Shown: positions 27,007 to 51,000, counted from the first letter of the stretch. The stretch: DNA of 64,000 bases from Cenarchaeum sp. (GCA_965242695.1 CBDESU010000001.1:64001-128000), one strand, 5' to 3'. Made by a program: numbers and translations. The notes: generated by a model not told the origin, from the letters alone.

Positions 27007-27267
27007 ACTTGTCCCCTGTTTGCGGCGCCGAATTGGTCTTGCGTTATAACCCTTGCCCCCGCCGCGGGCGCCCTGCAATGCTTATCATTGATGCTTATCA
27101 TAGGGGCCATCTTGCCGCCCAGCGGAAATTGTAGCTGGGGCATTGCCATGTCTTGCGGATTTGACGTAAAAATTTTCTAATATTTGGATTTTATGCACGT
27201 AGGATTGACGGTTTGACGGCCATACAGACATCATTCCTTAAATTGCGTTGGAGCGCATAGGTCTCCA
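27007..27267. promoter_or_regulatory. Divergent amoB/amoC promoter region
   Basis: AT-rich island with TTATAA (~27044) and CTTAAATT (~27237), an ATGCTTATCAT direct repeat and three TTGACG. Confidence 0.7.
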
Positions 27268-28366: not shown

Positions 28367-31300
28367 ATGCCGCTGCCGGCCCGCGAGCGGCTGCGCCGCC
28401 GGCGCGCCGCGCCGCATCTTGGCGTCCTTGCCATGGCGGCCGCTCTCGCAATCGGGCTGACTGCCGCGGCCGCACCGCCGGCGATCTGGGACGGCGGCAC
28501 GGGCGCCGCGCCTGCCCCGCACCCTGACGTCCCCCACCGTGACGCCTTCTCGCAGGCGCTGCTGCCGTCGGCGCATGCGCATCCCCACTACTGGCCGTGC
28601 AGCTACACCCAGCGCAGCCCGACCACCCAGGATGCGCCCCAAATGTCGTTCCACAACACGCCCAACGATGCGTACGGGATAGGCGACACCATCCTCATCA
28701 GGGGCTACAACTTCGACGGATTCGGCAATCCCACCAACACCCACGCCCACACGCGGCTTGCGCTCGAGACGGGGGACGTCGACCGCTTTGCCGTCTGGCA
28801 CGACACCAGTTCAGACTGGAGGAACGTCTACTACAGGTACACCGTCCAGCCTGGCGACTATTCCGAGGATCTCGACTACAAGTCGTCCAACGCGCTGCAC
28901 TTTGGGACCAGCCCGACTAGAAACCTTTCCGACACCGTAAACTGCTGGCTGTCGACCCCCGGCACCAACGACTACCACCGCACCTGGAGCACGCAGCAGG
29001 CGGGCAACGGCAAGCCGTCGCTTGCGGTGAACCACAACGTCGTAGTCGACGGCATCATACCGCGCGTGGAAAGCGTCGCGATGCCAAGCGGCGCGTACGG
29101 GGCGGGCTCGCAGCTCAACGTCACCGTCAGCTTTGGAGAGAATGTCACTGCAACGGGGCCGCCGCCGTCGTTAATCATTTCGCTGGACGGAGGGAACAGG
29201 ACGATCCCGTACCTGGATGGCAACGGGACGAGCTCGCTCGTCTTCAACTACACGGTGCTGCCGGGCGACCTTGCCGACGACCTGGACTACGCGGGGGCGG
29301 GCGCGCTTGTCCTTGCGGCGGGCGGCATCTTGGCGGACCGCGCCGACAACGGCGCAGACCTGGCGCTGCCCCTTCCGGGATCGCCCGGCTCGCTCGGCGC
29401 GACCTCGAACGTCAGCATAACGGCCGCATCCGGCGGGGTGGCCGCCGTCGGCTCGCCCCTGCCCGACGGCACGTACCCGGCGGGGTACCGGATTGCGGCC
29501 GTCGTCAACTTTAGCGAGCCCGTCGTGTACTCGGGGACGGCGCCGTCGCTGGTGCTCAATTTCAGCGGCTCGAACCGGACGGCCTCGTACGAGTCGGGCA
29601 ACAACACGCGGTCGCTTGCCTTCGCCTATGCGGTGCAGCCTGGCGACCCGCAGGTCGCCCGCCTGGACTATGCGGGCGCGGATGCGCTGCGGGCGGGCGC
29701 AGGCGGCCTGAGGGACAGGGCCGGCGATGCCGTCGATCCGGCCCTGCCACTGCCGGGAGGCGCCGGGCATCTCGGCAGCCTGCGCAGCATAGGGATTGAC
29801 CCGGCCGCCGCGGCGCACGTCGTCGGCGTCGACTCGCCCGACGGCGACTCGACGTACAAGCGCGGCGATACGGTCCGCATCGCAGTAGAGTTCTCGGCAT
29901 CCGTCGCGGTCATGGGCGAGCCTGCGCTGGCGCTTGCGACCGAGCCTCCGCGCAGCGCCCCGTATGCGGGCGGCGCCGGCACCAGCACCCTGGTGTTCAA
30001 CTACACGGTGCGGCCGGGCGACGCGGCGGCCGACCTGGACTATGCCGGCCGCGCGGCCCTGTCCCTGGAGGGAGGCGCAGCGATCCGCCTCGATGCGGAG
30101 GGCGGCGCGGATGCCGTCCTGGCCCTGCCGGCCCCGGGCGACCCGGGCTCGCTCGGCCGCAGCCGGGACGTTGCAATAGACGGGGCCGCGCCGGCGGTGG
30201 TGAATGTCACGTCGACGAGCCCCGGCGGCACGTACGGCACGGGCCGCATCGTCGACATTGCGGTGGCGTTTGACGAGCCCGTCGTCGTCGAGGGCGAGCC
30301 CACGCTGGGGGCCTACATGGATCTGCCAAGCGATGCGATCCGCTGCGTGCAGGGCCCGCCGCAGGGGCAGTGCGAGCTGGGAGCGCTGGCGGATCTGCCC
30401 GGCGGCGCCTCGTACGCGGGCGGCAGCGGCACGAGCAGGCTCGACTTTGCGTACGCGGTGCAGCCGGGAGACTCGGCCGCCGGCCCGGGGCGCGCGGGGG
30501 ACTCGGCCCTTGTCCTGGGGAGCGGCGGCAGCGGCGCGGCGATCAGGGACGGGCTGGGCAACACGCTAGAAGGCGCCAGGGCCCTGCCGGCTCCGGCGGG
30601 CATAGACCTCCACGGGCGCCCCGTGCCGGTGCTGGCGGCGGCCGCAGTTGCCGTCGACGGGCAGGGCTCGCCGAGGTTTGACAGGCTTGGAGGCGCCCAG
30701 GGCGTGTCCGTGTTCAGGATGGGCGAGGGCGACACGTTCGCACTGGTGGCCTCTGCGGCGGACCGCGCCGTGCAGCTGATCCGAATACACGAGAACGGCA
30801 CCCTGCGGGCGGTCTCGACGCTCAACGACACCGGCGATCTGGAGCTGTACGGGCCCAACGCGGTCGACACGATCGACATGGGCGACAGCGGCATGTTCGC
30901 CGTCGCCGCCTCGCAGCCGGACAACGGCGTGCAGCTGATCAGGATACACGAGAACGGCACACTCGAGGCGGCCGACCAGCTTGACAACGACAACACCCTG
31001 GAGCTGAACGGCGCCAGGTCGATCGATGCGTTCTGGACTGCGGGCGGCCGCGCGTTCGCACTCGTGGCCTCGCACTACGACAACGGCGTGCAGCTCGTGC
31101 GGATACGAGCGAACAGCACGCACGGCACCCTGGAGGCGGCCGGCAGCCTCGACGCCGGCAGCGGCGACCTGGTGCTGCGCGGAGCCGGCGGGGTGTCGGC
31201 ATTTCGCGCGGCCAACGGGACTACCATGGCCCTTGTGGCCTCGTACCAGGACGGCGGCCTGCAGCTCGTGCAGGTCGACGAGGAGGCCGGCACGCTGAGG

Positions 31301-34300
31301 GCCGTCGGCTCTGCCACAAGGGGCGACCCGGGACTTGGGCGCCTCGACAGGGCCATCTCCGTCACGGCCGTGGAGGCGGCCGGGGGAAGGGGCGCCGGCA
31401 GCACGCTAGCGATGGTCTCGCCCCTGGACAGGGACCACGTGCAGCTGGTGCGCGTCTACGACAACGGGACGATCGAGGGCGCTGGATCGGCGGCGGCCGG
31501 ACAGGACGGCTTTGACAGGCTCTGGAAGCCCAAGGGCTCGGACTTTTTCACGATGGGCGGCCGCACCTTCTCCGTCGTCACCTCGGCGGAGGGCAACGGC
31601 GTGCAGCTGGTGCGCGTGCACGGCAACGGCACGCTAGAGGCCGTCACATCGGCCGCGGACGGGCTGGACGGCTTTCTCGGGCTCGGCAACGCGCACGACA
31701 TCGACGCATTCGAGACGGCGGGCGGCCGCGCGCTTGCGCTTGCCGCCTCGTACGACGGAACCGTGCAGCTGATCCGGCTCTCGCCGGCGTCCGTGGAAAG
31801 CGTCGACATCGCGCCGCCGGGCGTCACGTATCCGCTGGGCCACCCGTTCGAGATCGCCGTCGACTTTGATGCGCCGGTCAACGTGTCGGGACCCCCTCCG
31901 TCCCTGCTGCTCTCGTTCGACGGACGCGAAAGGGCCGCCGACTACGTGTCGGGCAACGGGACGGCCAGCCTGGTCTTCAACTACACGGTGCAGCCCGGCG
32001 ACAGCGCGGACCGCCTGGTCTACGCGGGCCCAGGCGCGCTGGTGACGCGCGGCGCCGTGACGGACACGATCGGGATGGGACTCCCGGCGGCAAGGTATCC
32101 CGTGCCCGGCTACGTCGTCGAGGGGCTGATCGACGCCGGGCGGCAGCATCTTTCGCAGTATGGCGCGCAGAGCCCGCCGCGGATCGAACCGAGCCTGCGG
32201 GGCGCCGTCCCGGCCGCCGACCTGGAGCTCCCTGCGACGGACAGTGCGGAGCAGCTCGGCCCCGCGCAGCGCATCGCAGTCGACTCGTCGGGCATCGCGT
32301 ACGTCACCGGCGTCTCCTCGCCCAACGCAAGCGGCCCGTACGCCCGGGGCGCCGTCATCGACGTACACGTCCGGTTCTCCGTCCCGGTCGACGTGGCGGG
32401 CGCGCCGCGGCTGGCGCTGGCGACCGAGCCGGCGCGGTACGCGGCGTACGACTCGGGCAGCGGCACAGATGTGCTGACGTTCCGGTACGAGGTGGAGCAG
32501 GGCGACAATGCGGCCGACCTGGAATACGAGGACGGGGCGGCCCTGTCGCTGCACGGCATCGCCGCGTACATCCGCGACAGCTCCCACGGCACGGATGCCG
32601 TCCTGGGGCTTCCACCGCCCGGCAGGGACGGCTCGCTCGGCCGCTCGAACAACATCACGATCGACACCGCGGGGCCGCTCGTCGAGCGCATCACGTCGCC
32701 GACCGCCGACGCCGTATACGGCACGGGCCGCATCGTCGACATTGCCGTGCACTTTGACGAGCGGGCCGAGGTGGAGGGGGTTCCGCTGCTGGGCCTGGCG
32801 ACCGAGCCGCGGCAGCGCAGCGCCGCGTACGGCTCGGGCGGCGGCACGAACGTACTGTCGTTCCAGTACGCGGTGCAGCCGGGCGACGAGGCCCCCGACC
32901 TGGACCACGCCGGAGCGGATGCCCTGGTCCTCGGAGGCGGCGGCGGCGCGGCGATCACGGACGGGGCGGGCAACGCCGCAAACTCGTCCCTGCCGGGCCG
33001 TGGGTCGCCGGGGTCGCTGGCCTCTTCCAAGGACATTGCGATACGCGGCGCCCCCCTGCCCGTGCTTGCGGCCGCCGGCAGCGCCGCTGCCACCTCGCTC
33101 GACTTCGCCGGCGCGCGCTACCCTGCGGTCTTCGAGGCGGAAGGCCGCACGTACGCGGTCGTGACCTCGTTCAGCCAGGGCACCGCCCTGCTGGCGCGGG
33201 TGCACGAGAACGGCACGCTCGAGGCGGCCCACAATGTGACCAACAACGGCATGGACCTCCGGCTGGCCGGCGCCGTCGGCGTCGACGCCTTCGGGATCGG
33301 CAACCGAACGTTCGCCATCGTCGCCGCGCTCAGCGGCAACGGCGTCCAGCTGCTGGAGGTGCACCCGGGCAACGAGTCGCTCACGCCGGTCGACGACGTC
33401 GCCGGCGACAACAGCGACTCAAACTCGCTCGAGCTCCTCGGCGCGTACGGCGTCGACGCCTTCGGGATCGGCAACCGAACGTTCGCCCTCGTCGGCTCGA
33501 TCTGGGACGACGGCGTCCAGCTGCTGGAGGTGCACGCCGGCAACAACACGCTCAGGCCGGCCGACCGGCTGGACAAGAACGACGGCGGCGGCCTGGGGCT
33601 GGACGGAGCCGCCGCCGTCGCCGCCTTTGAGATCGGCGATCGCACGTACGCCGCCGTCGCCTCGCGCGACTCCAACGCCGTCCAGGTGGTGCGGATCCAC
33701 GGCAACGGCACGCTCGAGGCGAGCCCCGACCACCAGATCGCCGACACGGACTCGCTGGCGCTGGCATCCCCCCTGGCGATCGACGTCCTCGAGATCGGCG
33801 GCGGCACGTACGCCATCGTCGCCGCGCGCGGCGGCGACAACGGCGTCCAGCTGGTGCGGATCCGCGGGGACGGCACGCCGGAGGCGAGCCCCGGCAGCCG
33901 GCTCGTCGACACCGACGAGCTGAGGCTGACCAACCCGCACGGCGTCGCCGCCTTTGAAATGGGCAACCTGGCGTTCGCGGTCGTCGCCGCCAACGGCGAC
34001 GACGACGGCGTCCAGCTGGTGCGGATCCGCGGGGACGGCACGCCGTTCCCTGCCGGCTCGGCTACCGACGGCGCCGACTTTCCCGCACTCAAGGACGCCT
34101 ACGGCATCTCCGTGTTCGGCATGGGAAACCGCACGTATGCAATGGTGACCTCTGCCGACGGCAGCGGCGGCGGCGACGTCCAGCTGATCAGGCTCTCGCC
34201 CGTGTCCGTGGCAAACGTCTCGTCGACGCTGGGGGACGACGAGTACGGAGCGGGCCAGCAGATCGACATCGCCGTAGGGTTCGACGCGCCGGTGTCCGTC

Positions 34301-36641
34301 ACCGATCCTCCCCCCTCCCTACTGCTCGACCTTGGCGGGCGCGGCGGGGCCGCCGAGTACCTGTCCGGCAGCGGGACGGACTCGCTCGTGTTCAACTACA
34401 CGGTGCGCCCGGGCGACAACGCGGGCGGCGGCCTGGACTACGCGGGGCCTGGCGCCCTGGTGACGCGCGGCGTCATTAGGGAGAACGGCTCGTCTGCGAG
34501 CACCGCCGCTGCCGTCGACCTCGAGCTGCCCGCTCCGGGAGAGCGGGGATCGCTCGGGCACGGGCGGAGCATAACCATAGACACGCCGCCCGTCGCCGTG
34601 TCTGTCCGCTCGCCGGACTCTCCCGGCGCGTACTCTGCCGGATCTGCGATCAACATCACCGTGGCCTTTACCGAGGCGGTGACCGTGACGGGCGCCCCGC
34701 TTCTCTGGCTCTCGACCGACCCGCCCCGGAGCGCCGAGTACGTGGCCGGCATCGGCGGCGATTCCGAGATCGCGTTCCTCTATACGGTGCAGCCGGGCGA
34801 CGGCGCCGACCGCCTGGGCCACGCAAACCGCAGCGCACTGGACCTCAACGGCGGGACGGTCAGGGACGCGGACGGCGACGACGACGCCGTCCTCGGGCTG
34901 CCTCCGCCAGACGGGCGGGGGCTGCTCGGCGCCTCGGGCGCCATCCGGATCGACACCGTCGAGCCGCGCGTGATCCGCGTCGCGGAGGCCGAGCCAAAGG
35001 GCTCGGCGTACGGGGCGGGCGACACGGTCAGGATCGCGGCAATCCTTGACGAGCGCGTGGTGCTCTCCGGCGGCTCGCCCTCCCCGTCGCTGCTGCTCGC
35101 ACTTGACGGGGGCACTGACGCGACGGCCCGGTACGAGCGGCAGGTTGACGCGGGCGGGAGGACGACGCTCGTCTTTGCATACGAGGTGCGGGGCGGCGAC
35201 AGCGCGGATCCCCTCGGCTACGACGACACGGCGGCCCTGTCCGCGGGCGGGACGGCCATATTGGACATGGCCGGCAACGCCGCAAGGCTGAAGCTGCCGC
35301 CTGTAGACTCTCCCAACTCGCTGCATGCCTCGGGCATTACAATAGACGCCAGCGGCACGGACCCGGGCACGGACCCGGGCACGGACCCGGGCACGGACCC
35401 GGGCACGGACCCGGGCACGGACCCGGGCACGGACCCGGGCACGGACCCGGGCACGGACCCGGGCACGGACCCGGGCACGGACCCGGGCACGGACCCGGGC
35501 ACGGACCCGGGCACGGACCCGGGCACGGACCCGGGCACGGACCCGGGCACGGACCCGCAGCCCCGGCGGGAGCACCAACGGCACGGACGCTGGCGGCGGC
35601 GAAGGCAATGCCACACGGGCAGTCACTGTCGACGTTAGGCCGGGCGGGATTGCCGGCCAGGGCAACCTTACCGGCAGGGGCGACGAGGTGCGCATTACGA
35701 TCGACGTGTCGGGCCTGCCGGGCGCCGGCACGGCAGGCGGAACCGTCCGGTTCCCGCCAGGCGGCGTTGCCGTGACGGCGTCGTTCGCATCCGTCTCGTT
35801 CCCGCCGGGCGTGAATGCAACGTCCGTGCCGGCCAGCGGCCGGCTCGCACTGCATGTCGTCGCCTCGTCCGACGGCCTGCCGTCCAACTCGAGCATCCGT
35901 GACGCGCTTGCATACGACGGATCGGGCGCGGTCGCACTGCAGAGGGTCGTCGAGGTCGGAGACGAGGGCGACCGCATCGCATTTGATGCGCCCGTCCGCG
36001 TATCTCTCGACGGACAGGCCGGCGGCCGCGCGTTCTACATCGCCGGCGGCGCCGGCGGGGCGATCGAGCCGATCGACATGGCATGCGCGGCCGACGACAC
36101 GGAGAGGGTCCACCGCCAGCTCGACGGCGTGGGCGAGTGCCGGCTCGACTCGGCCGGCGACATGGTCATCTACACGTACCACCTGACGCGGTTCGGCACC
36201 GTCGTCTCTGAGCGCGGCACGCCGCCGCCCGTAGAGTACACGTGCTCGGTGCGCCTCGGCTCGACCGACCTGGCCGTGGGCGTGATTCCGGGCGGCTATT
36301 CAAAGGCGGTCGGGCAGGCCGTGGTCAATTCCGGCTCGCAGCCGTTTGACCGCGTCGGACTCGATGCCACCCCGTGGTACATCGACCCGTCCTCGGGGCG
36401 GCAGGGGCCGGCCGCCAAGCCGCTGCCTGCCTCGCTTACCGTGGTGGGCACGGGCGGGCCGGGCGGGGAGTTTGCCGCGCTGCCGGCCGGCGGCGCCGCG
36501 GTCGCGCGCGACCTTGCCGGCGGCCTAGAGGCGCCGATATGGCTCAAGATCAACCTGACGGGGCACGACCAGGTAAATGCCACCAAGCTCGTCCAGAAAG
36601 TCACGTACACCGCAGAGTGCGGCGGCCCGCCGGGGCAGTAG
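28367..36641 (+). CDS. Giant secreted adhesin-like protein (11 Ig-like repeats, two 7-bladed propellers, (GTDP)17 linker, ZU5/GPS-like and C-terminal domains), frameshifted at ~35558
   Basis: ORF 28367-35638 continues in the +1 frame from 35559 (SPGGSTNGTDAGG...) into ORF 35688-36641. Signal peptide, 'LxFxYxVxxGD' modules and 'GVQLxRxHxNGTL' blades. Confidence 0.8.
35354..35557 (+). repeat. 17 perfect copies of a 12-bp unit
   Basis: (GGCACGGACCCG)17 = 204 bp, encoding (GTDP)17. Confidence 0.97.
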
Positions 36642-36941
36642 CTGGCGCCGCCGGCCGCGTGGACGGACGGCTGCGCCTCGCCGCGGAGCCGGCAGTGCGC
36701 AGCCGGGCCTGGCCGGCGGGCATGCATCCCTCCGCCGCATCCGCTCGCCGGATGCCTCGGACAGGCCAAAAGCCGCCGGCCGCGGGGGGCGGGAAGGGGC
36801 GGGATGTGATGCGGCCCTTGGGATCTGCAAACCTGCAACGCCTGACCCAATGGTTATATTGCGCACAGATTGGCGCGCGGCGTTGGGGTGCGCGGTGCAG
36901 GCTCGACATGTGTGGGTGTCCACGGCCGTCGGTGGTGGCCC

Positions 36942-39900: not shown

Positions 39901-42900
39901 AAGAAATCGCCGCGGCGATCGGCGACAACTCCCAGGTTGGCGTGGCCTTTGTCGGCGTGAGGTCGGAGCAGGACGGCCTTGCGGCCGCCGCGTCGGGCAG
40001 CATGGCGGCCACCAGTGCTACATGGTTCGTGACGCCGAGCGGGTTCTACCGTGACATGTCCGAGGCGACCAGCAGCTTTGCAAGGGCCGTCGACATGACG
40101 GCCATCGTGCTCGACGTGGAGGACGGCGACAAAAAGTCGGCGCTCGACGGCAAGGTGGTAGGCGAGCTGAACTTTTACGACTATGCGGCCTACGACGGCC
40201 TGTTCATCCTTGGCAACTCTGCGGCGGCCGCATCGGGCGACACTGGCAGGGACGTCTCGGCCCTCAACGCGACCGACCTGCGTTCCGTAATACCGGCGCA
40301 GGCCGACCTGTACGAGGGCGTACTCGGCGACATTGCGCTCAACTCAAAGGGCGACCTGCGCTCGCCCGACAGGTTTGCGGTCTGGAAGGTGGACGGCACG
40401 ACCGGCATGTGGATGGACACGGGAGTCACAAAGTCGACGCCCGTAGTCGACGTCGGGGCCGTCGTCATACTGGAGAGCGACAGGTTTGACGACTCGCCGC
40501 GCCTTGCGGCAATGCACATCGCAGTCGACGACTACAACACGGCGGCCGAGGACGGCGGCGCGCTGTACCTGAACCTGCGCGTCGTGCAGACGAGCCTCTC
40601 GCCGGGCTCGGCCACGCCCACGTCGCCGGTCGCACACGAGGCCGTCATGGCCGCGAGCGGCGGCGAGGATGGCATGAGGTACTATGTCGGCCCGTCGACG
40701 AGCGGCAACTCGCAGCGCGTCCTAGAGTACGCCAATGCGAACAACCTGACTCTGATCAGCCCGTCGTCTACGGCGCCTTCGCTTGCCACCGAGGGCGATG
40801 CCCTGTTCCGCCTCGTCCCGAACGACTCGCAGCAGGGCAAGGTGCTCGCCGACATAGTTCACAACCAGCAGGGAGCGCTCCTTGCCGCCCTCATCGACCA
40901 GACCGGCCACGAGCACGTCGTCATGGTGGTCCGCAACGACACGTGGGGACAGGGCCTGGACGCCTCTACCTCTGGGCGCCTGGGCGTGCACGAAGTCGAC
41001 ATTACAAGGATCGTACACGAAGAGTCGGACGCCGACTGGTCAAAGACGGCGATGGATATCAGCGCCGAGATCAATCGGGTGCGCACGGCTACCCCGAACG
41101 ACCCGATCGCCGTCCTGCACATCGGCTTCCCGGGCGACTTTGTCTCGCTGGCAGCCCAGGCGCCCGACTATCCCGACATGAGGACGGTGCCCTGGTTCGG
41201 CACGGACGGGGTGGCAGGCACCGCGCCCCTGGTCACCAATGCGACGGCCCGCCAGTTTGCCGACGACGTAAACCTGACTGCGACAAAGTTCGACGTTATA
41301 GCCAACGAAAAGTTCGACAGGCTGACGGCCGCGCTCGAGTCGCGGGGAGTACAGGTCAGGACGACCTACGAGTACTCTGCATACGACAGCGTCTTCGTCC
41401 TGGGCCAAGCCATAGAGGCGGCGATGTCGGAAAGCGACTCTTACGGCCCGCTCGACGTCCGCTCGGCCGTGCGCGCCGCTGCTGCCGAGTACGAGGGCGT
41501 CCTGGGCGATATCGAGCTCAACCGCGCCGGCGACCTGCGCACCCCGAACAGCTATGCGGCTTGGACGGTAGAGGGCGATTCGTGGACAAAGGTCGAGACG
41601 CACCCGTCGACTCCGGTATTCGACGTCGGGGCCCTGCTCCTGCTCGACAACAACCCCGTGTGGACGGACGATCGCGAAAAGGCGGCCATGGATGTCGCCG
41701 TCGACGACTTCAACACGGACCACGAGCTCGTCGGCGACTTTTACCTCAACCTGGCGGTCCAGAGGATCAGCATCGCGCCGAACACGGACTCGCCCGACCC
41801 CGACGCGCTCGCCGGCCTGATGAGCGCGCACGCCAACGGCGCCGGCCCGTCGCTGTACATCGGCCCGTCGACTAGCGGCAACACCGGGCGCGTCCTGGAA
41901 TACGCAAACGCCAACGGCATCGTCCTGATCAGCCACTCTTCCACGGCGCCGTCGCTTGCCATGTGCGGCGACAACCTGTTCCGCATGGTCGCCCCCGACA
42001 GCCGCCAGGGGGGGATACTGGCCGACCTGATCGGCGCCGGCGGCGGCGGCGTGACGGACCTGGTAATGGCCGTGCGCGACGACACCTGGGGGCGCGGAGT
42101 GGATGGGACGACAGCGGAGGGGCTGGGAAACGGCACCTCTGTCACGCGCATCTCGTTCGCCGAGTCCGAGGGAGACTGGGCGGGAGTGGCCGCCAGGCTC
42201 GGCGCGGCCGTCGACAGCGCAAGCGCATCGGCTGCCGCAAAGCCGCAGGGCAAGGCGGCGGTCCTGTTCATCGGGTTTGCCGGCGACTTCAACTCGATCG
42301 CATCGCAGGGGTCTGCGGTGCCTTCCCTGTCGTCGGTGGACTGGTTCGGGCCCGACGGCGTCGGAAACAGCCCCGCCATCATTGCGAACTCTACGTCGGT
42401 TGCGTTTGCAAAGCAGGTCAACATAACGACCGTCATATTTACTGTCCGCGGCAACGCCGTCAACGAGCGCCTCGATCCGAGCGCCGTGTACGGCCCGTCT
42501 GCGTACGACTCTGTGCGCATCATGGGCGATGCGATAAAGGCCGCGTACGCCGGGTCCGGCTCGGTGCCGGCCGCCCTGGACGTAAAGGCCGAGATACCGC
42601 CTGCCGCGGCCGCCTACTCGGGGGCGCTCGGAAACGTCACGCTCGACGCCAACGGCGACCTGCTCTCCCCGTCGGCATACGGGGTGTACCGCATAGGGGC
42701 GGACGACACCTGGGATCTCGTACGCGTGCAGGATGCGCACGGGGATGCGGGCACCTGCGAGGCCCGATACATTACGATCGGCGAGCTGTTCACGGCGGCG
42801 ATCGGCGAGGTGGGCCCGCTCAACGACGCGGTCCACAAGGCGTACGCGCTTGCCGTGGAGGACTACAACCGGGAGCAGGCAGCGGCGGGATCGCCGGTGC

Positions 42901-44261
42901 GGGTGCAGCTGCAGCGCGTCGACACGCCGCCGGTCTCGCCGGTCGAGGGCGTGAGCCGCGCATACGCCGGCGGCGGCGGGCCCGTGGCGTACCTGGGGCC
43001 GATGTTGCCGGCCTCGGCCGCGCCGCTGGCCAAGTTTGCGACCGACAACGGCCTCGTAATGGTCAGTCCGGGAGCAACGTCTGCGAGCCTCGCAATGCGG
43101 GACAACTTTTTCCGCCTCTCGCTGACGGACCGGTACGAGGCCGATCTGCTCACGATTGCGGCCCACCGCGAGGGCGTCCGGACCGTCCTGCCCGTCCTGC
43201 TCGACGAGACGCTCGGCCGCAGCTACGGGAGCGAGATCAGGATAGAGGCAGCCAAGCTCGGCATGGCGTACCTAGATCCCGTCTACATACCGTTTTCGCG
43301 CCAGGCGCTGAACCTGTCGTCGACCGTGGCCGAGATCGACGGGATTGTGGCCGGGCTAGAGTCGAGCGGGACCGACCTGTCGTCGGTCGGGATAATTGCG
43401 GTCGCGCTCAACAAGGACCTCCACTCGCTGGCCCACTATGCGGTCGACTATCCGCGCCTCGCATCGGTAAAGTGGTTCGAGCCGACGCTGCTGTTCGCGC
43501 CGCAGCCGATCACGGATCCAGAGACGCTCCGGCTTGCGCAGACGGTCCCGTTCTACAGCCTGTCTTGGGATCTTCCGCAGACGGAGAGGCTCGAGCGCGT
43601 TCGCAGCACGCTTGCCGAGCGGGAGGGCTTCCCGCCAAACCAGTTCTCGTACGCCGCGTACGACGCCGTGTACATGCTCGCCGACGCAATCCGAATGTCG
43701 ATGGCCCCCGACGGCTCGTACGCGGGGGCGGACGTGGCCTCGAACATGCATGCAGCCGCCGACGGGCTCGACGGCGTGCTCGGCAGCAGCGTGCGCCTGG
43801 ACGAGAACGGCGACCGCATACTGCCAAACCGCGCCATCATATGGAAGACGTCGAGCGAGGGCGCCTGGGAGGACACGACGGACCGTGCCGAGCTGGATCC
43901 CGTGTGCGGCATCTCGCTCGAGAGGGGCACGATCTCGTTTGGCCGCGTAAACGCGGGCGGGCAGTCGGGCACCGAGGCGCAGACGATAACAAACGTCGGC
44001 ACCCTGTCCATTGACGGCATGGAGATCGGCGCGACGGACTGGACGGGCGCCGCAAACTCGACCGTCCTGGACAAGGGCGCGACAAGCGTGATGATCGGCG
44101 GCGGGGAGTGGACCTCGCTGTCCGGCGCGGCCGCGGCGGCGCCCGAGGGCGTGCAGACCGACGCAAAGTTCCGCCTTGATGTACCGCGGTTCACGCCGCA
44201 GAGCAGCGCCGGCGATGCCGAGCAGACCATAACGTACACCGTCTCGTGCGGTGCGCCGTAG
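36942..44261 (+). CDS. Giant secreted protein with six tandem LivJ/ANF-type periplasmic binding domains and a C-terminal beta domain
   Basis: Six 'Y(I/V/L)GP..S...FR...D.WG...Y.AYD...G.I.L...GD' modules. Signal peptide ending SAHAQ. Confidence 0.88.
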   Translation: MLNRSARTGHSAGAIAAFAIAAVAIAGLAAAPPADVAPWSAHAQSSATVKVGALVANATGSDFRDDNRTAVIERAVRLFNGMYDDIDLDLSVTEFVRNETVNREEPRALAGAYDNGAGPSFYIGPTTSEGLTHILENDTTQALLDGDDVLLVTPSSEAPRLADVDNIFRLAFNVARQGDMLVDEMKAAEIKSYIVVARNDTWGQDIAGYVVKRAGQEGLESKGRFMFDINRSAAHWEQVRERVESSAGSVPAGEDRIGVFFFGYDRDYSDMAAAANGSDAIRGNTAWFAPSSTGIGAPSRISNDTARDFSTDVGLTALSQDIADSEAKRGIDEFLFGDGRSRNATFYEYSAHDSVFVLGHAMRMAIAAGGDADNVTAVKRYMAAAAMNYTGAALGDGLLLDGNGDLRAPDSFTVHTLDRSTGEWSDGRTVGSTVTLVGALLAINNTDYDDDEARDALLQAAAEYNNGTDRRPLVKLITYDITDPADQGGYVALDALMRAHDNGAGPSAYIGPSLSSNVDEVLNYSNDNDILLLSYGSESEDLSIPGDNLFRTAVSTDRHGKFMAEVMKDAGVQSVVTVVYGDSWGLSYNASIAAALAPNGLSQAGSVKFEENNTAWGPVLDVIAAAVAKGGMVGVAFVGFDMDQNSLAAAALANSTARSVQWFVSPTGFYEMEGDALDFARNVSLTAIVNDVEESARMLSLDGRVAGDLDFYDYAAYDSLFILGNTIAAAVESGKATNITADDLRPLVPAQADAYDGILGDIALNANGDLGSPDRFAVYKIDGTSGKWMKTDAAKSTPVVRIGALLAIDNADYADNNARDVLRQASADFNAAPGDRPFYVSLTTYDITDPTNSSAYVALGAMTDAYDNGNGPSAYIGPSLSSNVERVLSYATSNDILVLGYASESESLSKPGDNLFRTAISTARHGHFMAQVMADAGVESVVTVVRDDPWGQSMSASIGEALAPNGLRLAGAVKFAPATTDWASTVEEIAAAIGDNSQVGVAFVGVRSEQDGLAAAASGSMAATSATWFVTPSGFYRDMSEATSSFARAVDMTAIVLDVEDGDKKSALDGKVVGELNFYDYAAYDGLFILGNSAAAASGDTGRDVSALNATDLRSVIPAQADLYEGVLGDIALNSKGDLRSPDRFAVWKVDGTTGMWMDTGVTKSTPVVDVGAVVILESDRFDDSPRLAAMHIAVDDYNTAAEDGGALYLNLRVVQTSLSPGSATPTSPVAHEAVMAASGGEDGMRYYVGPSTSGNSQRVLEYANANNLTLISPSSTAPSLATEGDALFRLVPNDSQQGKVLADIVHNQQGALLAALIDQTGHEHVVMVVRNDTWGQGLDASTSGRLGVHEVDITRIVHEESDADWSKTAMDISAEINRVRTATPNDPIAVLHIGFPGDFVSLAAQAPDYPDMRTVPWFGTDGVAGTAPLVTNATARQFADDVNLTATKFDVIANEKFDRLTAALESRGVQVRTTYEYSAYDSVFVLGQAIEAAMSESDSYGPLDVRSAVRAAAAEYEGVLGDIELNRAGDLRTPNSYAAWTVEGDSWTKVETHPSTPVFDVGALLLLDNNPVWTDDREKAAMDVAVDDFNTDHELVGDFYLNLAVQRISIAPNTDSPDPDALAGLMSAHANGAGPSLYIGPSTSGNTGRVLEYANANGIVLISHSSTAPSLAMCGDNLFRMVAPDSRQGGILADLIGAGGGGVTDLVMAVRDDTWGRGVDGTTAEGLGNGTSVTRISFAESEGDWAGVAARLGAAVDSASASAAAKPQGKAAVLFIGFAGDFNSIASQGSAVPSLSSVDWFGPDGVGNSPAIIANSTSVAFAKQVNITTVIFTVRGNAVNERLDPSAVYGPSAYDSVRIMGDAIKAAYAGSGSVPAALDVKAEIPPAAAAYSGALGNVTLDANGDLLSPSAYGVYRIGADDTWDLVRVQDAHGDAGTCEARYITIGELFTAAIGEVGPLNDAVHKAYALAVEDYNREQAAAGSPVRVQLQRVDTPPVSPVEGVSRAYAGGGGPVAYLGPMLPASAAPLAKFATDNGLVMVSPGATSASLAMRDNFFRLSLTDRYEADLLTIAAHREGVRTVLPVLLDETLGRSYGSEIRIEAAKLGMAYLDPVYIPFSRQALNLSSTVAEIDGIVAGLESSGTDLSSVGIIAVALNKDLHSLAHYAVDYPRLASVKWFEPTLLFAPQPITDPETLRLAQTVPFYSLSWDLPQTERLERVRSTLAEREGFPPNQFSYAAYDAVYMLADAIRMSMAPDGSYAGADVASNMHAAADGLDGVLGSSVRLDENGDRILPNRAIIWKTSSEGAWEDTTDRAELDPVCGISLERGTISFGRVNAGGQSGTEAQTITNVGTLSIDGMEIGATDWTGAANSTVLDKGATSVMIGGGEWTSLSGAAAAAPEGVQTDAKFRLDVPRFTPQSSAGDAEQTITYTVSCGAP

Positions 44262-44272
44262 GGGGATGCGCA

Positions 44273-47200
44273 GTGTCCCCGCACCCCGCGAAGGAAGCGA
44301 GCGCCGCCGGCGAAGAGCACGCGTGCAGCAGCGGCCCTGCCCGGGCCGGGGCATCGCCGCCTAGCAGGCCCCCGTACGCCGGCCTCGCATCGATCGCGAT
44401 GGCGGTGCTGGCAGTGGCCGGAGTCGCCGTCGTTGCCCTTGCAGGCGCTGCCGCGCCAGGCGGCCCTGCCCAGGACGGCGCGCAGCTTGACGCGCCGTGG
44501 GCGGCGCACGCCCAGCTGCAGCCGGCCGAGCCGGTCCGCATCGGGGCATTCATGGCGCCGGGCGGCGGATTCGACGACACTCCCCGCATACTCGCGCTCC
44601 GGCACGCCGTCGGCGAGTTCAACATGCAGGGCGGCGGCGCCCTGCTAGAGCTGGCCGAGTACAACTTTACGCGCGGCAACGAGTCGGCCGCACTCGAGGC
44701 CGCGTACGACGGCGGCGCCGGGCCGACGTACTACGTGGGCCCCACGACGAGCAGCGGCCTGTCCTCCATAATGGGCCTTGCCAACGGGAGCGGAATAGTG
44801 CTCGTCAGCCCCGCCTCTGACGCGGCGCACCTTGCCGTGCCGGGCGACACTACGTTCCGCCTCACGATCAGCGTCGAAAAGCAGGCGCGCGCGCTTGCCC
44901 GCATAATGTCAAACGCATCGATCGATGCGGCGGTCACCGTAATACGCGACGATGCGTGGGGGCGCAGCTTCAACGCCTCGCTCAGCGACGAGCTCGGCCT
45001 GCGGGGAGTCGAGCTTGCCGCGTCGGTGCCGTTTGCCGACTCGGGCGCCGACTGGGACGCGGCGGCGGGGGCGGCCGGCGCCGCGGCCTCGGACTTGGCC
45101 GCCGCGCAGGGATCGCCCCGGGCTGGCATCGTGTTTGCCGGCTTTGGATCCGACTACCGCGAGATGGCCGCAGCGGCCGCATCCGCCGGGCCCGGTGACG
45201 CGGCCGCCGCGGCCCGCGGCGTGCCCTGGTTCGCGCCGTCGGCCGCAATCGAGGGATCGACGCTCGTCCCAATAGCCAACAGTACGGTCCGCGCCTTTTC
45301 AGCCCAGGTCAACCTGACTGCACTCGGGCACAACGCGCCGTCAAACGCAGTCACCGACAGGCTGGATGCGGCCCTTGCGCCGCCCGGCGGCGATCCCGAG
45401 CGCCTGACGTACTACGAGTACGCCGCGTACGACTCGCTGTTCGTGCTCGGCACCGCGATCGGGATGGTCCGCGACGCAGCGGGGGGCGATATGCCAGACC
45501 CCGCGGCCGTCGCAGCGGCCATGCCGGCGGCCGCCCTGGCCCACAAGGGGGCCCTGGGCAGGATCGCGCTCAACCCGAGCGGCGACCTTCTCATGCCCGA
45601 CGCGTTCGGCGTGTGGCAGGTCGACGCGTCGGGGGCGTGGAACCGCACGGGCACGGCCGCATCCGGCACTCCGGTCACCGAGATCGGAATGCTCGCCATC
45701 CTGGCCGGCGGGCACGAGGCCAACAGGGTCGCCGCCGCGCGCCTTGCCGTCAACGACCACAACTGGGCGCAGGATGCGGCCGCCGCATCCTCGGGCGAAG
45801 GAGGGGACGGGCGCCACTACCTGCACCTGTCCGTACACAACATTACCGTCAACGACACCCCGCCGCGCGTGCTCGACGTCCTGCGGAATGCCCACGCCGG
45901 CGGAGAGGGCCCGTCGGTGTACGTGGGCCCGTCGACGAGCGGCAACACGGGGAGGGTCCTAGACTACGCCAACGCCAACGGCATCGTGCTCGTCAGCCCG
46001 TCGGCGACGGCGCCGTCCCTGTCGATCGAGGGCGACAACCTGTTCCGACTGGCGCCCGACGACAGCCAGCAGGGCCTCGTGCTTGCGAACGTGATCGGCC
46101 GCGACCTGGCGGCCGCCGGAGGGTCCGGCGGCGGCGCCGGCACGGTCGTAGTGGCCGCCCGCGACGACGCCTGGGGGCGCGACCTGAACCGGACCGCGGC
46201 CGTACGGCTCGCCGCGCTCGGCCTGGACACCGTGCCGATCCAGTTCTCGGAGCGCGCCGAATGGCAGTCGGTCGCGCAGCGGCTAAACGCGGCGATCGAC
46301 TCTGCGAGCGGCGCGGGCGGCCCTGCCGCCGTCCTGTTCATCGGCCTGGCGCCGGACTTTAGGGGGATCGCCCCGCTGGCAGGCGATGCCCTGCCGTGGT
46401 ACGCCCCCGACTCGATCGCCGCCTCGCGCGACATCGCCGGCGATGCGGCCGCGCGCGGCTTTGCCGACAGGGTCAACCTGACGGCGACGCTGTTCAACGC
46501 GCCGGCAAACGCCGAGCAGGACCGCGTCCGGTCGACCCTTGCCGAGTCGGGGATATCGGGCCTGCGCACGTACGACTATTCCACCTACGACTCGGTCTCC
46601 GTTCTCGGCGAGGCCGTTGCCAATGCCTGGGACTCGGGCGCGGACGCGGCGGCCGTTGCGGCCGCAATACCGCCGGCGGCAGGGGCGTACGAGGGGGCCC
46701 TCGGCGACATCGCGCTCAACTCAAAGGGCGACCTGCGCTCGCCCAACGACTATGCGCTTTGGACGATGGAGGACGATGCGTGGAAGCGCATCGAGGTGTT
46801 TGCGGGCACGCCGGTCGTCGAGTTCGGCGCCCTAGTGTCCCTGGACGGCACGCCGGCCTCTGACGCGGCCCGGCTCGAGGCCATGATGCTCGCCGTCGAC
46901 GAGTACAACGGCGCAGCCGAGGCGGCGGGGGGCCCGATGTACATCGACCTGTCCGTGTTCCGCACGAGCATAGTGCCGGCGGCCGCCACGCCGTCGTCGC
47001 CTGCTGCGGCCGCGGCCCTGGAGGCTGCCTACGCCGCCGGCGCCGGCCCGTCGTACTACATCGGCCCGACGACGAGCGGCAACGCCGCCCGGGTCCTCGG
47101 CTTTGCAGACTCGAACAACATTACGCTGATCAGCCCGTCGTCGACGGCCGCGTCCCTTGCCAGGGAGGGCGATGCGCTGTTCCGCCTCGCCCCCAACGAC

Positions 47201-50200
47201 GCCCTGCAGGGCCGCATCCTGGCCGACATCATACACAACCGGCAGGGGGACATCATCGCCGGCCTCATCCGCGGATCGGGCGCGGACGCGGTCGTCTCGC
47301 TAGTGCGCAACGACACGTGGGGGCGCGACCTGGACGACTCGGCGTCGGCCCGCCTTGCCGCTCACGGCATACCCGTAACCAGCATACTGCACGCCCCGCA
47401 CGGCGCAGACTGGACGGATACGGCATCCGAGCTGGACTCGGCGATCGGCTCGCTGCTGGACGGGGGCTCTTCCCCCGCAGTCCTCCATGTCGGGTTCCAG
47501 GGCGACTTTGCCGCGATCGCCGGCGAGAATGCGGCCGGCGGCTACGGCCGCCTTGCATCCGTTCCCTGGTACGGCACGGACGGCATCGCGCGCGGCTCGT
47601 CCGTCGTGTCCGACCCGGACTCGCTTGCGCTCGCCGGCGCGACAAACCTGACGGCGACCGTGTTCGACGCCCCGGCATCTCCGCGGCTTGATGCCGTCAA
47701 GGCGGCCCTGGCCGCGCGCGGCATCGCCTCGCCCGGCCCGTATGCGTACTCTTCGTACGACGCCGTCCTGGTCATGGCCGGCGCCGTCGAGATGGCCATG
47801 GAGTCGAAGGGCGCCTCTACGTACGCGCCGGCCGACGTGCGCGGCATGGTAAGGGCCGCGGCGGCGGCGCACGACGGCGCCCTGGGCGACATCGAGCTCA
47901 ACGGCGCCGGCGACCTGCGCACGCCCAACGGGTACGCCACGTGGACGGTCGAGGACGGGGCCTGGAAGAGGGCCGGCGCGCACCCCTCCACGCCCGTGTT
48001 CGACGTCGGAGCCCTGCTCGTCCTTGGCGCCGGGCAGCCGTACACGGACGGGGCCGAGCTGGGAGTCATCGAGGCGGCCGTCGACGACTTCAACACCGCG
48101 CACGAGCTCGTCGGCGACTTTTACCTCGATCTCGAGGTGCAGCGGATCCGGGCCTCGCCGGGATCGGGATCGGCCGACCCTGGCGCGCTTGCCGGCCTAG
48201 AGGCCGCGCATGCGGGCGGCGCCGGCCCGTCGTACTATGTCGGCCCGTCCTCGAGCGCCAACGCCGCAAGGATGCTCGACTATGCAAACCGCAACGGGCT
48301 CGTCCTGGTCAGCCCGTCGTCGACCGACCCGTCGCTTGCCGTGCCCGCAGATGCCCTGTTCCGCATGATCCCAGACTACACGAGGCACGCCGATGCCCTG
48401 GCGCGGCTCCTCGGCGAGAGGGGCGCGGCCGAGGTCGTGCTCGCCGTCAGGGACGACGCCTGGGGGGCAGGCGTGAATGCATCCGTGCGCGCCGCGCTCG
48501 GCGACCTAGAGGCGCCGCCGGCCGTATCGCAGGTCTCGTTTGCCGAGGACAACGCCGACTGGGCCGCCGTTGCGCGCGAGCTCGGGGCCGCCGCGCAGTC
48601 GGCCGCCTCGCGCGCGGCCGCATCCTCTGCCTACCCAGCCGTCGTGTTCGCCGGATTCGACGGCGACTTTGCGGCCCTCGCGCAGCGGGCGGCGGCCGAT
48701 CCCGATGCGGCGCGCGCGCTTGCATCCGCGGAATGGCTCGGCGCCGGCGGCATCAGCGCCGACCCCGCCACGCTGGCGGGCCCCGGCGCGCTGGATCTCG
48801 CGACGGCCGTCAACCTGACTGCCGTCCGCTTCGCCCCGCCCGCGACGGCCGTTGCGGCCGGCCTGGATCCCGCCGCCACGTACGGGCCGTCCGCGTACGA
48901 CTCTGTGCGCGTCCTGGGCGCGGCGATCGGCGCCGCGTACGCCGACTCGCCAAACGGCACCGCCCCGTGGGGCCCCGCGGTGGGCGAGGAGATGCGCGAG
49001 GCCGCCGCCGAGTACACGGGCGCCCTCGGGGACCTCGAGCTCGACGAAAGCGGCGACCTTGACCACCCAGCCACGTTCGGGGTATACTCGGCGGGCGCAT
49101 CGGCGGCGGACGGCGGGGGCGCATGGACGCTCGACCGCATCCTCGCGCCGGGCGCGGCCGGCGAGTGCCCTGCCGGCACGCGCTGCATCGCGATCGGCGA
49201 GCTGTACACGGCCGAGCTCGGCGAGGCCGCCGAGGAGATTCACGAGGCGTACGCGATGGCCGCCGAGGACTTTAACCGCGAGCAGGCAGCATCGGGCGCC
49301 TCGCCGCGCGCGCATATAGTCCTGCAGCGCGCCGAGGTCTCGCTCTTTTCTCCCCTCGAGGGGCTGGAGGCGGCGTACGCCGGCGGCGCCGGGCCGGCCG
49401 CGTACGTGGGCCCAATCACGAGCTCGTCGGCGCTGGCCATGAAGCCGCTCATCGACAAGGAGGGCATCGTCCTCGTCAGCCCGACGTCGGCGTCGACGGG
49501 CGGCGGCCTGGCCGATGCGGACACGCTGTTCCGCCTGGCCCTCAGCGACACGTACGAGGCGGACCTGCTCGCGATCTCGGCCGGCTACGAGGGCGTCGAG
49601 ACCCTGATTCCTGCCGTCCGCGGCGATGCGTACGGGCTGAGCTACGAGTCCGAGCTGCGCGCCGAGGGGCGGATACTCGGCATTGGCGTGCCCGGCTCGG
49701 TCGTCATGGAGATCGACGACTCTTCCCCGGCGCACGGCCTGCTCGACGCAAGCGCCGACGCGGCCGACCTGAACCGGCTCGCATCCGCGGCCGTCGCGTC
49801 CGGCACGCCGGCATCCGCGGTCGGGATCGTGGTGGCCGGCACGACGACAGACCTCCACGACCTGGCCCACTACGCCGTCGAGTACCCGCTGCTGACCGAG
49901 GCAAAGTGGTTCGAGCCGGGCAACCTCTACCCGCCGCGCCCCATAACTGACGCCGAGACGCTCGAGCTTGCAAGGACGGCCGAGCTGTTCAGCACGCAGT
50001 GGGACGTCCCGCAGACGGGCCGGTTCGACGACGTCCACGACCGCCTTGCCGCAAGGGTCGGCATCGAGCCGCACATGCACTCTTACGCGGCGTACGACGC
50101 CGTCCTGCTCCTCGCCGATGCCGTAAACAGGTCGATGGCCGCCGACGGCTCGTACGCCGGCCCCGACGTGGCGGCCGAGGTGCCCGCCGCCGCGGCGCGG

Positions 50201-50716
50201 CTCCACGGCCTGCTCGGCGACGGCCTGGTGCTCGACGCCGGCGGCGACCGCGTCTCGCCGAGCAGCGTCGTCCTGTGGAAGACCGAGCAGGGGACGGGCA
50301 GGTGGATCGACGACGGCCACCTGCACCTTGATCCTACATGCGGTATCGCCCTCAGGTCGGCCGAGCTTGCGTTCGGCGACGTCCGGCCCGGCCTGCCTTC
50401 GAATGCGGCCGTCCAGGGCGTGCGGGCTGCGGGCACCGTGCCCGTATCCGGACTGGACGTGCATGCGACGCCGTGGACGTCTGCGGGTACGGGCGATACG
50501 GTCCTGCCGAGCGCGGCGACGCAGCTGCTCGTGGGGCGCGACTGGACGCCGCTGGCGGGGACGGTAGACCTTGGAGGCGGCGAGGGCGGCAGCGGCGCCG
50601 CAGTCGCCTCGATCGCCTCTTGGCGCGACCTCAGCTTCCGCGTGAGCCCCGATGCCGGCGCCCCGATGCCGGGGCAGATTGTCCAGACCGTCACGTACGC
50701 CACTACGTGCGACTAG
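44273..50716 (+). CDS. Giant secreted protein with five tandem LivJ/ANF-type binding domains and a C-terminal beta domain
   Basis: Five modules (YVGPTTS, YVGPSTS, YIGPTTS, YVGPSSS, YVGPITS). Signal peptide ending AAHAQ. Start GTG 44273 or ATG 44399. Confidence 0.88.
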   Translation: MSPHPAKEASAAGEEHACSSGPARAGASPPSRPPYAGLASIAMAVLAVAGVAVVALAGAAAPGGPAQDGAQLDAPWAAHAQLQPAEPVRIGAFMAPGGGFDDTPRILALRHAVGEFNMQGGGALLELAEYNFTRGNESAALEAAYDGGAGPTYYVGPTTSSGLSSIMGLANGSGIVLVSPASDAAHLAVPGDTTFRLTISVEKQARALARIMSNASIDAAVTVIRDDAWGRSFNASLSDELGLRGVELAASVPFADSGADWDAAAGAAGAAASDLAAAQGSPRAGIVFAGFGSDYREMAAAAASAGPGDAAAAARGVPWFAPSAAIEGSTLVPIANSTVRAFSAQVNLTALGHNAPSNAVTDRLDAALAPPGGDPERLTYYEYAAYDSLFVLGTAIGMVRDAAGGDMPDPAAVAAAMPAAALAHKGALGRIALNPSGDLLMPDAFGVWQVDASGAWNRTGTAASGTPVTEIGMLAILAGGHEANRVAAARLAVNDHNWAQDAAAASSGEGGDGRHYLHLSVHNITVNDTPPRVLDVLRNAHAGGEGPSVYVGPSTSGNTGRVLDYANANGIVLVSPSATAPSLSIEGDNLFRLAPDDSQQGLVLANVIGRDLAAAGGSGGGAGTVVVAARDDAWGRDLNRTAAVRLAALGLDTVPIQFSERAEWQSVAQRLNAAIDSASGAGGPAAVLFIGLAPDFRGIAPLAGDALPWYAPDSIAASRDIAGDAAARGFADRVNLTATLFNAPANAEQDRVRSTLAESGISGLRTYDYSTYDSVSVLGEAVANAWDSGADAAAVAAAIPPAAGAYEGALGDIALNSKGDLRSPNDYALWTMEDDAWKRIEVFAGTPVVEFGALVSLDGTPASDAARLEAMMLAVDEYNGAAEAAGGPMYIDLSVFRTSIVPAAATPSSPAAAAALEAAYAAGAGPSYYIGPTTSGNAARVLGFADSNNITLISPSSTAASLAREGDALFRLAPNDALQGRILADIIHNRQGDIIAGLIRGSGADAVVSLVRNDTWGRDLDDSASARLAAHGIPVTSILHAPHGADWTDTASELDSAIGSLLDGGSSPAVLHVGFQGDFAAIAGENAAGGYGRLASVPWYGTDGIARGSSVVSDPDSLALAGATNLTATVFDAPASPRLDAVKAALAARGIASPGPYAYSSYDAVLVMAGAVEMAMESKGASTYAPADVRGMVRAAAAAHDGALGDIELNGAGDLRTPNGYATWTVEDGAWKRAGAHPSTPVFDVGALLVLGAGQPYTDGAELGVIEAAVDDFNTAHELVGDFYLDLEVQRIRASPGSGSADPGALAGLEAAHAGGAGPSYYVGPSSSANAARMLDYANRNGLVLVSPSSTDPSLAVPADALFRMIPDYTRHADALARLLGERGAAEVVLAVRDDAWGAGVNASVRAALGDLEAPPAVSQVSFAEDNADWAAVARELGAAAQSAASRAAASSAYPAVVFAGFDGDFAALAQRAAADPDAARALASAEWLGAGGISADPATLAGPGALDLATAVNLTAVRFAPPATAVAAGLDPAATYGPSAYDSVRVLGAAIGAAYADSPNGTAPWGPAVGEEMREAAAEYTGALGDLELDESGDLDHPATFGVYSAGASAADGGGAWTLDRILAPGAAGECPAGTRCIAIGELYTAELGEAAEEIHEAYAMAAEDFNREQAASGASPRAHIVLQRAEVSLFSPLEGLEAAYAGGAGPAAYVGPITSSSALAMKPLIDKEGIVLVSPTSASTGGGLADADTLFRLALSDTYEADLLAISAGYEGVETLIPAVRGDAYGLSYESELRAEGRILGIGVPGSVVMEIDDSSPAHGLLDASADAADLNRLASAAVASGTPASAVGIVVAGTTTDLHDLAHYAVEYPLLTEAKWFEPGNLYPPRPITDAETLELARTAELFSTQWDVPQTGRFDDVHDRLAARVGIEPHMHSYAAYDAVLLLADAVNRSMAADGSYAGPDVAAEVPAAAARLHGLLGDGLVLDAGGDRVSPSSVVLWKTEQGTGRWIDDGHLHLDPTCGIALRSAELAFGDVRPGLPSNAAVQGVRAAGTVPVSGLDVHATPWTSAGTGDTVLPSAATQLLVGRDWTPLAGTVDLGGGEGGSGAAVASIASWRDLSFRVSPDAGAPMPGQIVQTVTYATTCD

Positions 50717-50960: not shown

Positions 50961-51000
50961 CCTAGGCGCCCCTAGGCGCCCCTAGGCGCCCCTAGGCGCC
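50961..51000. repeat. (CCTAGGCGCC)4 upstream of the amoX promoter
   Basis: Four exact 10-bp units ending about 35 bp before the TTTAATA box at 51036. Confidence 0.95.

Follow-up and report, generated by a model that had tools for sequence, protein, structure and literature searches.

A stretch of 64,000 nucleotides from Cenarchaeum sp. (GCA_965242695.1 CBDESU010000001.1:64001-128000), referred to here as the window, carries three giant open reading frames (ORFs) in the same orientation, at 28367-35638, 36870-44261 and 44246-50716. They lie between amoC and amoA and belong to three genes that we call A, B and C. The proteins encoded by these genes end in a common domain of 120-135 residues, which is bracketed by its first and last cysteine (Cys). 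This Cys-bracketed terminal domain, which may dock large secreted proteins at the cell surface, is the subject of the present analysis. The genome to which the window belongs is 3.89 Mb in size, consists of 2 contigs and has a guanine-plus-cytosine (GC) content of 67-68%. Since archaeal amoA, amoB and amoC are all encoded in the window, the organism is an ammonia-oxidising archaeon. The same DNA is found in public runs labelled sponge metagenomes.

The bodies of the three proteins are of different kinds. The first piece of gene A (28367..35638, plus strand; 2423 amino acids (aa)) encodes a signal-type N-terminus, Ig-like repeats and EPTP-type propeller blades. Pfam recognizes only the EPTP propeller repeats in gene A itself, and Big_5 Ig domains are added in its paralogues. 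A second piece (35559..36242, plus strand) encodes a conserved module of approximately 230 aa that is common to many paralogues and ends in ...IYTYHLTRFGT...PPP. The terminal domain follows at 36243..36641 (plus strand, first Cys to stop codon; E 3e-51 with an iterated hidden Markov model (HMM)). The longest ORF of gene B (36870..44261, plus strand; likely start ATG 36942) encodes a signal-type N-terminus, six ANF_receptor/Peripla_BP_6 domains and the terminal domain (43905..44261, plus strand, first Cys to stop codon; iterated HMM E 4e-63). Gene C has the same architecture with five such domains (longest ORF 44246..50716, plus strand; likely start ATG near 44399), including its signal-type N-terminus and the terminal domain (50339..50716, plus strand, first Cys to stop codon; iterated HMM E 5e-58). 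An earlier first-pass annotation of the window had described bodies of six and five binding domains, and these are indeed ANF_receptor stretches (E 8e-93 in gene B, E 3e-65 in gene C). The ANF_receptor/Peripla_BP_6 scores are 311.7 and 172.6 bits for gene B and 220.9 and 145.7 bits for gene C, all above the Pfam cut-offs.

The same annotation proposed signal peptides ending in AHA(Q/H). The motif is present in A, B and C, but it is found 12-30 residues past the hydrophobic stretch and not directly behind it. A[HQ]A occurs within the first 220 residues in 20 of the 44 domain-bearing open frames of the genome. At the other end of the A-C proteins, the stop comes 1-6 residues past the last Cys, and there is no membrane anchor. 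The model of the CFI-box-CTERM domain (NF041770) does not match in the three terminal domains, although it scores 70.7 bits (cut-off 40) on a positive control, the protein encoded at 1590-9683 in the same window. The proposed absence of a C-terminal membrane or CFI-box anchor thus holds.

The three consecutive giants are present as first described, except that gene A is split by a frameshift in this assembly. Positions 35354..35557 (plus strand) consist of 17 perfect tandem copies of GGCACGGACCCG (12-bp unit, 17.0 copies, 100% matches), which encode a (GTDP)17 linker. The frameshift site is at 35558 (plus strand), where the window has one extra base relative to public contigs. The last ~27 codons of the first piece, past 35558, are an out-of-frame read-through, and the terminal domain falls in a second ORF (35688-36641) in another frame. 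Four public contigs cross the site. Three of them lack 1 base at 35558 and one lacks 7 bases from 35554, and either deletion restores the frame. These contigs represent all three public runs that cover the site (3/3, from three studies); a fourth run has no cover there. The downstream piece of gene A aligns over 337 aa, at 61% identity, with residues 2472-2800 of a paralogue of 2800 aa that has no interruption (E 6e-124). Because of this match and the in-frame public contigs, gene A is most likely a single gene of approximately 2,750 aa.

The C-terminal domains of A, B and C are homologous to each other, with BLASTP E values of 8e-7 (A/B), 2e-6 (A/C) and 2e-18 (B/C), and they were found within a few bases of where the earlier annotation had placed them. 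An alignment of 30 copies from the genome has invariant columns C, Q, G, W, Q, Y and C, in agreement with the pattern C...Q...G...W...Q..TY...C proposed from the three window copies. The domain opens with the first Cys, and 0-6 residues separate the last one from the stop. Both are kept in 30/30 aligned copies. The invariance of this pair suggests that the two residues may form a disulfide. The loops between the conserved strands vary widely in length.

In sequence, the domain resembles no catalogued family or structure. The three window domains match no Pfam family at E<=10, including PF13731 (WxL), and no NCBIfam family at E<=10 apart from one chance-level match (E 0.039). The domain profile has 0 matches among PDB sequences at E<=10. 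The stand-alone and cargo forms from relatives, which are described below, match no Pfam family at E<=1, again including PF13731, and PF05229 (Csu/spore-coat-U) has no Pfam match to either the window domains or the relatives' forms. The domain is not mentioned in the literature searched on sponge Thaumarchaeota, NHL repeats, surface proteins and genome expansion, supplements aside, and the term 'CFI-box' has no occurrence in it. Eukaryotic-like repeat proteins are mentioned in passages of two sources (PMC7848895, PMC6790972), whereas this domain is not. Neither the domain family and its Cys-bracketed form nor its archaeal setting and its spread onto giant proteins is catalogued in the libraries and literature searched.

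Copies in this genome were gathered with an iterated HMM, and the unit counted is the open frame. The domain occurs in 44 open frames, which total 74,362 aa, corresponding to 5.7% of the genome. In 42 of the 44, 0-19 residues separate its end from the stop. The remaining two copies are internal and belong to metalloprotease-like proteins in which fn3 domains follow the domain. A library of 1.84 billion representatives contains 518 proteins that match at E<=1e-3, and the domain lies <=10 residues from the C-terminus in 146 of the best 150 of them. Small matches in this global library were considered as stand-alone members and rejected, since they are fragments of large high-GC proteins. The 40 carriers that were compared with Pfam, on top of which come window genes A-C, comprise 14 with NHL, 10 with Big_5/EPTP, 3 with beta-helix, 4 with ANF_receptor, 2 with fn3 and 7 without a family. 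The idea of one terminal module on unrelated bodies is borne out by these counts. It is neither a member of an annotated family nor spread across internal sites, so the refutation foreseen on these points in the first-pass annotation did not occur.

The domain tree follows the classes of cargo. It requires 10 label changes, compared with a mean of 25.1 in shuffled trees and a value as low in 0/200 shuffles, the labels being rough. This indicates that the expansion proceeded mainly by whole-gene duplication. Cargo and ending are nevertheless exchangeable, as the first-pass annotation supposed. The positive control mentioned above is a giant secreted beta-helix/NosD/chondroitinase-B-like protein of ~2,700 aa (1590-9683, plus strand) that ends in CFI-box-CTERM. 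Over 1776 aa, its body shares 50% identity with a paralogue that has the Cys-bracketed ending. On one beta-helix body, the C-terminal ending is swapped between CFI-box-CTERM and the Cys-bracketed domain. The genome has 34 CFI-box matches, with open frames totalling ~94,000 aa. Together, the Cys-bracketed carriers and the CFI-box giants make up ~13% of the genome when open-frame lengths are summed.

Within the same genus, 45 domain matches are found in a species of 3.2 Mb and 41 in one of 3.7 Mb, as against 0 in two species of 2.0 and 1.8 Mb whose genomes are 99% complete. The domain family separates the three genomes of 3.2-3.9 Mb in the genus from the two sampled genomes of 1.8-2.0 Mb. Because it tracks the large genomes, it bears on the genome enlargement of sponge-associated ammonia oxidisers and on their host-facing surface. 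In the family, 12/401 genomes from 5/27 genera match at E<=1e-5. In a sample of the phylum, matches are found in 6/401 genomes, all of the same family, and in 0/344 genomes of other families.

Small stand-alone members, the possible major subunits that the first-pass annotation had in mind, are found in low-GC relatives and not in this genome. These forms are 158-173 aa long, consist of a signal peptide and one domain, and are named only 'hypothetical protein' in the database. Seven proteins of stand-alone size were found in a collection of 5.8 billion proteins by a search bounded by its word index. The genes can stand in tandem, as in G271 and as in G161, where a cargo form flanks them on either side. 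One genus has, downstream of the partner gene described next, a gene for a protein of ~300 aa with two tandem, divergent copies of the domain (L117 788-1753 (+); L116 1261-2127 (+)).

In the relatives, genes ending in the domain have a conserved neighbour, which we call the partner. Its product starts with a signal peptide, continues with some 116 aa of beta-rich domain and a stalk, and is anchored at its C-terminus by CFI-box-CTERM (67.4 bits, cut-off 40) or, in one case, by a PEF-CTERM-like tail that scores just below the cut-off. The partner is present in 13/401 genomes of the family in a tally that includes the unpublished G221. Eleven of these 13 are in the tally of loci; one at a contig end and one unpublished were left out. 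In 10 of the 11 loci read, from 4 genera, a gene ending in the domain directly adjoins the partner (G109, G271, G197, G159, G020, G266, G161, G223, G216 and G137). The eleventh locus, G298, is borderline (E 9e-4 to 4e-3). As cargo, these loci encode, among others, an S8-protease-like protein, propellers and NHL repeats. Genes resembling chaperones or ushers were not seen in the loci read. The hhalign probability between partner and domain is 3.1%, and the two are thus not detectably related. Four of the relatives' loci also encode an RTX-type calcium-repeat protein (L109 6125-6985 (-); L107 1415-2200 (-); L105 1233-1889 (-); L083 1223-1975 (-)).

The partner domain and the stand-alone domain of G109 are predicted to form a complex. 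The interaction prediction score from aligned errors (ipSAE) is 0.74 (0.75, 0.72 and 0.74 in three runs), and the best of 3 controls scores 0.00. In calibration, the ipSAE mark was reached by 116/157 solved complexes and 2/215 mismatched pairs, which is a rough guide here as custom alignments were used. Contacts agree to at least 96% between runs, and the predicted local distance difference test score of the partner is at least 82. On the domain, the predicted interface comprises residues 16-31, 46, 51-54 and 134-145, which correspond to the Cys-carrying first and last strands. On the partner's side, the predicted pairing involves its own first and last strands, and the pairs 100:140, 102:142 and 104:144 indicate that it would be parallel. 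The predicted interface columns are better conserved than the rest, with a mean entropy of 1.68 bits (33 columns) versus 2.34 bits (91 others; Mann-Whitney p 3e-6, the columns not being independent).

We lean towards reading the domain as a plug that docks its cargo onto a socket in the cell envelope. This reading builds on the observed homology of the domain, its strict terminal position, the diversity of its cargo, its taxonomic range and its gene neighbourhood. The plug would be a beta-rich C-terminal module whose first and last strands each bear an invariant Cys, possibly joined as a disulfide. These two strands would form a conserved edge and pair with strands of a protein fixed in the envelope, with binding and interface as predicted for the G109 pair. 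Cargo exported by the Sec pathway and devoid of its own membrane anchor would thereby be kept at the cell surface. In the low-GC relatives, the socket would be the partner, a small secreted beta-sandwich on a stalk that is held by a CFI-box-CTERM or PEF-CTERM-like anchor and encoded beside the plug-bearing genes. In the lineage of Cenarchaeum sp., the plug would have spread together with its cargo, mostly by gene duplication, to ~42 giants including A-C, and the copies in this genome may still dock. The docking role that the first-pass annotation proposed is thus supported in relatives by the conserved neighbourhood and the modelled complex. Its specific suggestion of loading onto a pilus or the S-layer is not supported: the predicted partner is membrane-anchored, and this genome has neither the partner nor a small subunit.

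Several observations weigh against docking in this form. A 10-sequence HMM of the partner, run with filters off, finds nothing in this genome at E<=10, and the partner is present in 0/4 congeners. With the whole partner protein as query, only CFI-box tails are found here, and with its N-terminal domain, nothing. There is also no stand-alone copy of the domain among the 44 open frames. Since neither partner nor stand-alone copy is detected in this genome, the docking of A-C is extrapolated from relatives. The 2/44 internal copies indicate that a free C-terminus is not strictly required for the domain. Furthermore, the complex score is a confidence value of a model obtained from unpaired custom alignments and not a measurement. 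The conserved terminal strands with a structural disulfide could reflect folding alone.

A more elaborate form of docking is possible, but we hold it with considerable doubt. In this form, a surface-display system not previously described in archaea would use a disulfide-tied, TasA/Csu-like plug, and strands of a socket anchored in the envelope would complete or clamp it, as an archaeal counterpart of donor-strand or cohesin-dockerin systems. In sponge symbionts, dozens of giant proteins of adhesin-like and solute-binding kinds would have acquired copies of the plug, with a new socket (the S-layer, CFI-box giants or the plugs themselves) taking the place of the ancestral one.

The resemblance to TasA and Csu in this proposal is a lead that comes from an outside model of a relative's protein. 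An Atlas model of a relative's stand-alone protein has a predicted template modelling (TM) score of 0.66, and its nearest structural neighbours are unnamed clusters with TM scores of 0.65-0.68. Clusters of the camelysin/TasA family give 0.61-0.62, which is under the tool's bar for naming a family, and Csu-pilin clusters give 0.53-0.60. In a comparison of language-model features, the named family that comes closest is WxL (0.79 for a window copy, 0.83 for a stand-alone relative), where values below 0.9 are leads only. The TasA/Csu/WxL likeness suggested in the first reading has a lead in fold and features, but there is no sequence-level membership in TasA, WxL or SCPU.

The live rival to docking, which is the pilus form of the first-pass proposal, takes this fold at face value. 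The domain would be a fibre subunit with a TasA/Csu-type pilin fold, in which stand-alone proteins form the shaft, cargo proteins the tip and the anchored partner the base, and which polymerises or is capped by a donor strand. The TM scores to camelysin/Peptidase_M73 (0.62 and 0.61) and to SCPU clusters (0.60 and 0.53) fit this scheme, as do the stand-alone forms with their tandem arrangement in G271 and G161 and the strand-to-strand nature of the predicted interface. After its signal peptide, the RTX protein of the four relatives' loci begins with a strand like that preceding the first Cys of the domain, and this strand could be a donated one. However, TM scores of 0.5-0.6 between beta-sandwiches are weak, and the best neighbours (0.65-0.68) are unnamed. 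The number of stand-alone-size proteins is small (7 in the word-index-bounded search), and this genome has no stand-alone subunit. PF12389 (Peptidase_M73) has 0 matches in this genome and matches 1/251 genomes of the phylum, and the hhalign probability between the domain family and that one archaeal member is 0.2%. We consider the fibre subunit unlikely.

The carrier bodies are adhesin-like, and within the genus the expansion to 41-46 matches is confined to the three large genomes. The domain could also be a lectin-like terminal cap that binds sponge matrix or a glycan and not the cell's own envelope, and the occurrence of the window DNA in sponge metagenome runs and the widely varying loops between the conserved strands agree with such a function. 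What is conserved in the domain, however, are the terminal strands and not the loops. The low-GC relatives have the family too, beside an anchored partner, and a binding module need not stand at the extreme C-terminus in 42/44 carriers. A host- or ligand-binding cap is less likely than docking and, in our view, improbable. The least likely alternative, to which we give very little weight, is a sorting signal read by a dedicated export or processing machine and then removed, as in type IX cargo: its strict C-terminal position on very diverse large cargo and its alternation with CFI-box, another C-terminal sorting-type domain, would suit a signal, but the stand-alone forms would be signals without cargo, no recurrent processing-gene neighbour occurs <=4 kb from the carriers here in crude ORF clustering, and the protein conserved beside it in relatives, a small beta-sandwich with an anchor, is not enzyme-like. 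The recurrent small genes detected in that clustering are mostly antisense artefacts, with nothing enzyme-like among them, and one Zn-finger-like family lies near 5 carriers.

A terminal docking module with an anchored receptor is a kind of system known from bacteria. In the WxL Csc clusters of lactobacilli and enterococci, a C-terminal domain for non-covalent surface attachment is found on small and large secreted proteins, and a membrane- or wall-anchored partner is encoded in the cluster. The Cys-bracketed family likewise has a terminal domain on secreted proteins (42/44) and an adjoining anchored partner in relatives (10/11 loci), though none in this genome. It differs in having no PF13731 match, an archaeal host without peptidoglycan and, at its two ends, an invariant Cys pair that is foreign to WxL domains. 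The TasA and Csu families assemble by donor-strand exchange. A likeness of the domain to TasA/camelysin, TasA-like archaeal bundling pili and Csu pilins is suggested by the fold-level TM scores of the relative's model and by the predicted strand-pairing contact. In contrast to TasA and Csu, it has no sequence relation to them, it ends giant multi-domain proteins here, a major subunit is missing from this genome, and no partner of the chaperone, usher or SipW type was seen. In the cellulosome, the dockerin is a small terminal module on varied cargo that plugs into cohesin, a socket on an anchored scaffold. The working would be alike, but the sequences are unrelated, dockerins are Ca-binding and helical, and no scaffold here carries repeated sockets.

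CFI-box-CTERM (NF041770) is comparable in another way, as the alternative ending on homologous giants and as the anchor of the partner in relatives. It has a hydrophobic membrane segment that the Cys-bracketed domain lacks, and no sequence match exists between the two. The C-terminal domain of type IX secretion (Por_Secre_tail) in Bacteroidota is a beta-rich module of ~80-130 aa on diverse large secreted proteins, and it needs an outer membrane and the type IX secretion system. Both are beta-rich modules at the extreme C-terminus of diverse large cargo. However, there is no Pfam match, and the stand-alone forms and the anchored neighbour favour docking over export.

To our knowledge, little is understood of how large secreted proteins are retained at the surface of archaea whose envelope is only a membrane and an S-layer. 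The relatives supply a two-gene pair of candidate socket and plug that is amenable to testing. In this genome, six of the carriers consist of 1-6 LivK-type binding domains in a chain. Uptake of branched-chain amino acids by sponge ammonia-oxidising archaea is shown in PMC13552627. The livK survey in that work restricted matches by protein length, and giant LivK-type carriers may therefore have been left out of it.

Elsewhere in the genome, a small secreted Ig-like protein with a proline-rich stalk and a CFI-box anchor (L090 598-2106 (+), corresponding to G000:C1 ~2045496-2047004) is encoded head-to-head with the carrier L077. Its stalk motif, CG.GTV..G.CV, recurs in partner proteins of relatives. 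This protein was considered as a local socket and rejected, as it is a single case with an N-terminal module unrelated to the partner.

The remaining features of the window surround the block of genes A-C. The genes amoB (26437-27075, minus strand) and amoC (27268-27828, plus strand) are located just upstream of the block, and amoA (57490-58140, plus strand) is ~7 kb downstream. The gap between amoC and amoA is ~30 kb and includes the 22-kb block of giant genes. TPR repeats make up nearly all of a protein of ~900 aa (22704-25415, minus strand). A perfect 10-bp tandem repeat, CCTAGGCGCC x 4, is found at 50961-51000, ~245 bp 3' of the gene C stop. Three paralogous ORFs of ~200-240 aa with a weak UPF0175-like C-terminus (52437-53069, 54417-55040 and 56072-56800, all on the minus strand) sit in a stretch of lower GC content (0.60). 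Defence-type genes flank the region. They encode a protein with a DUF2326/ABC-3C C-terminal domain (1-987), a D12-class adenine methyltransferase (58331-59248), an AAA_14/DUF4143 ATPase (59680-61320) and an AAA_21 (AbiEii-like) ATPase (62005-63180).

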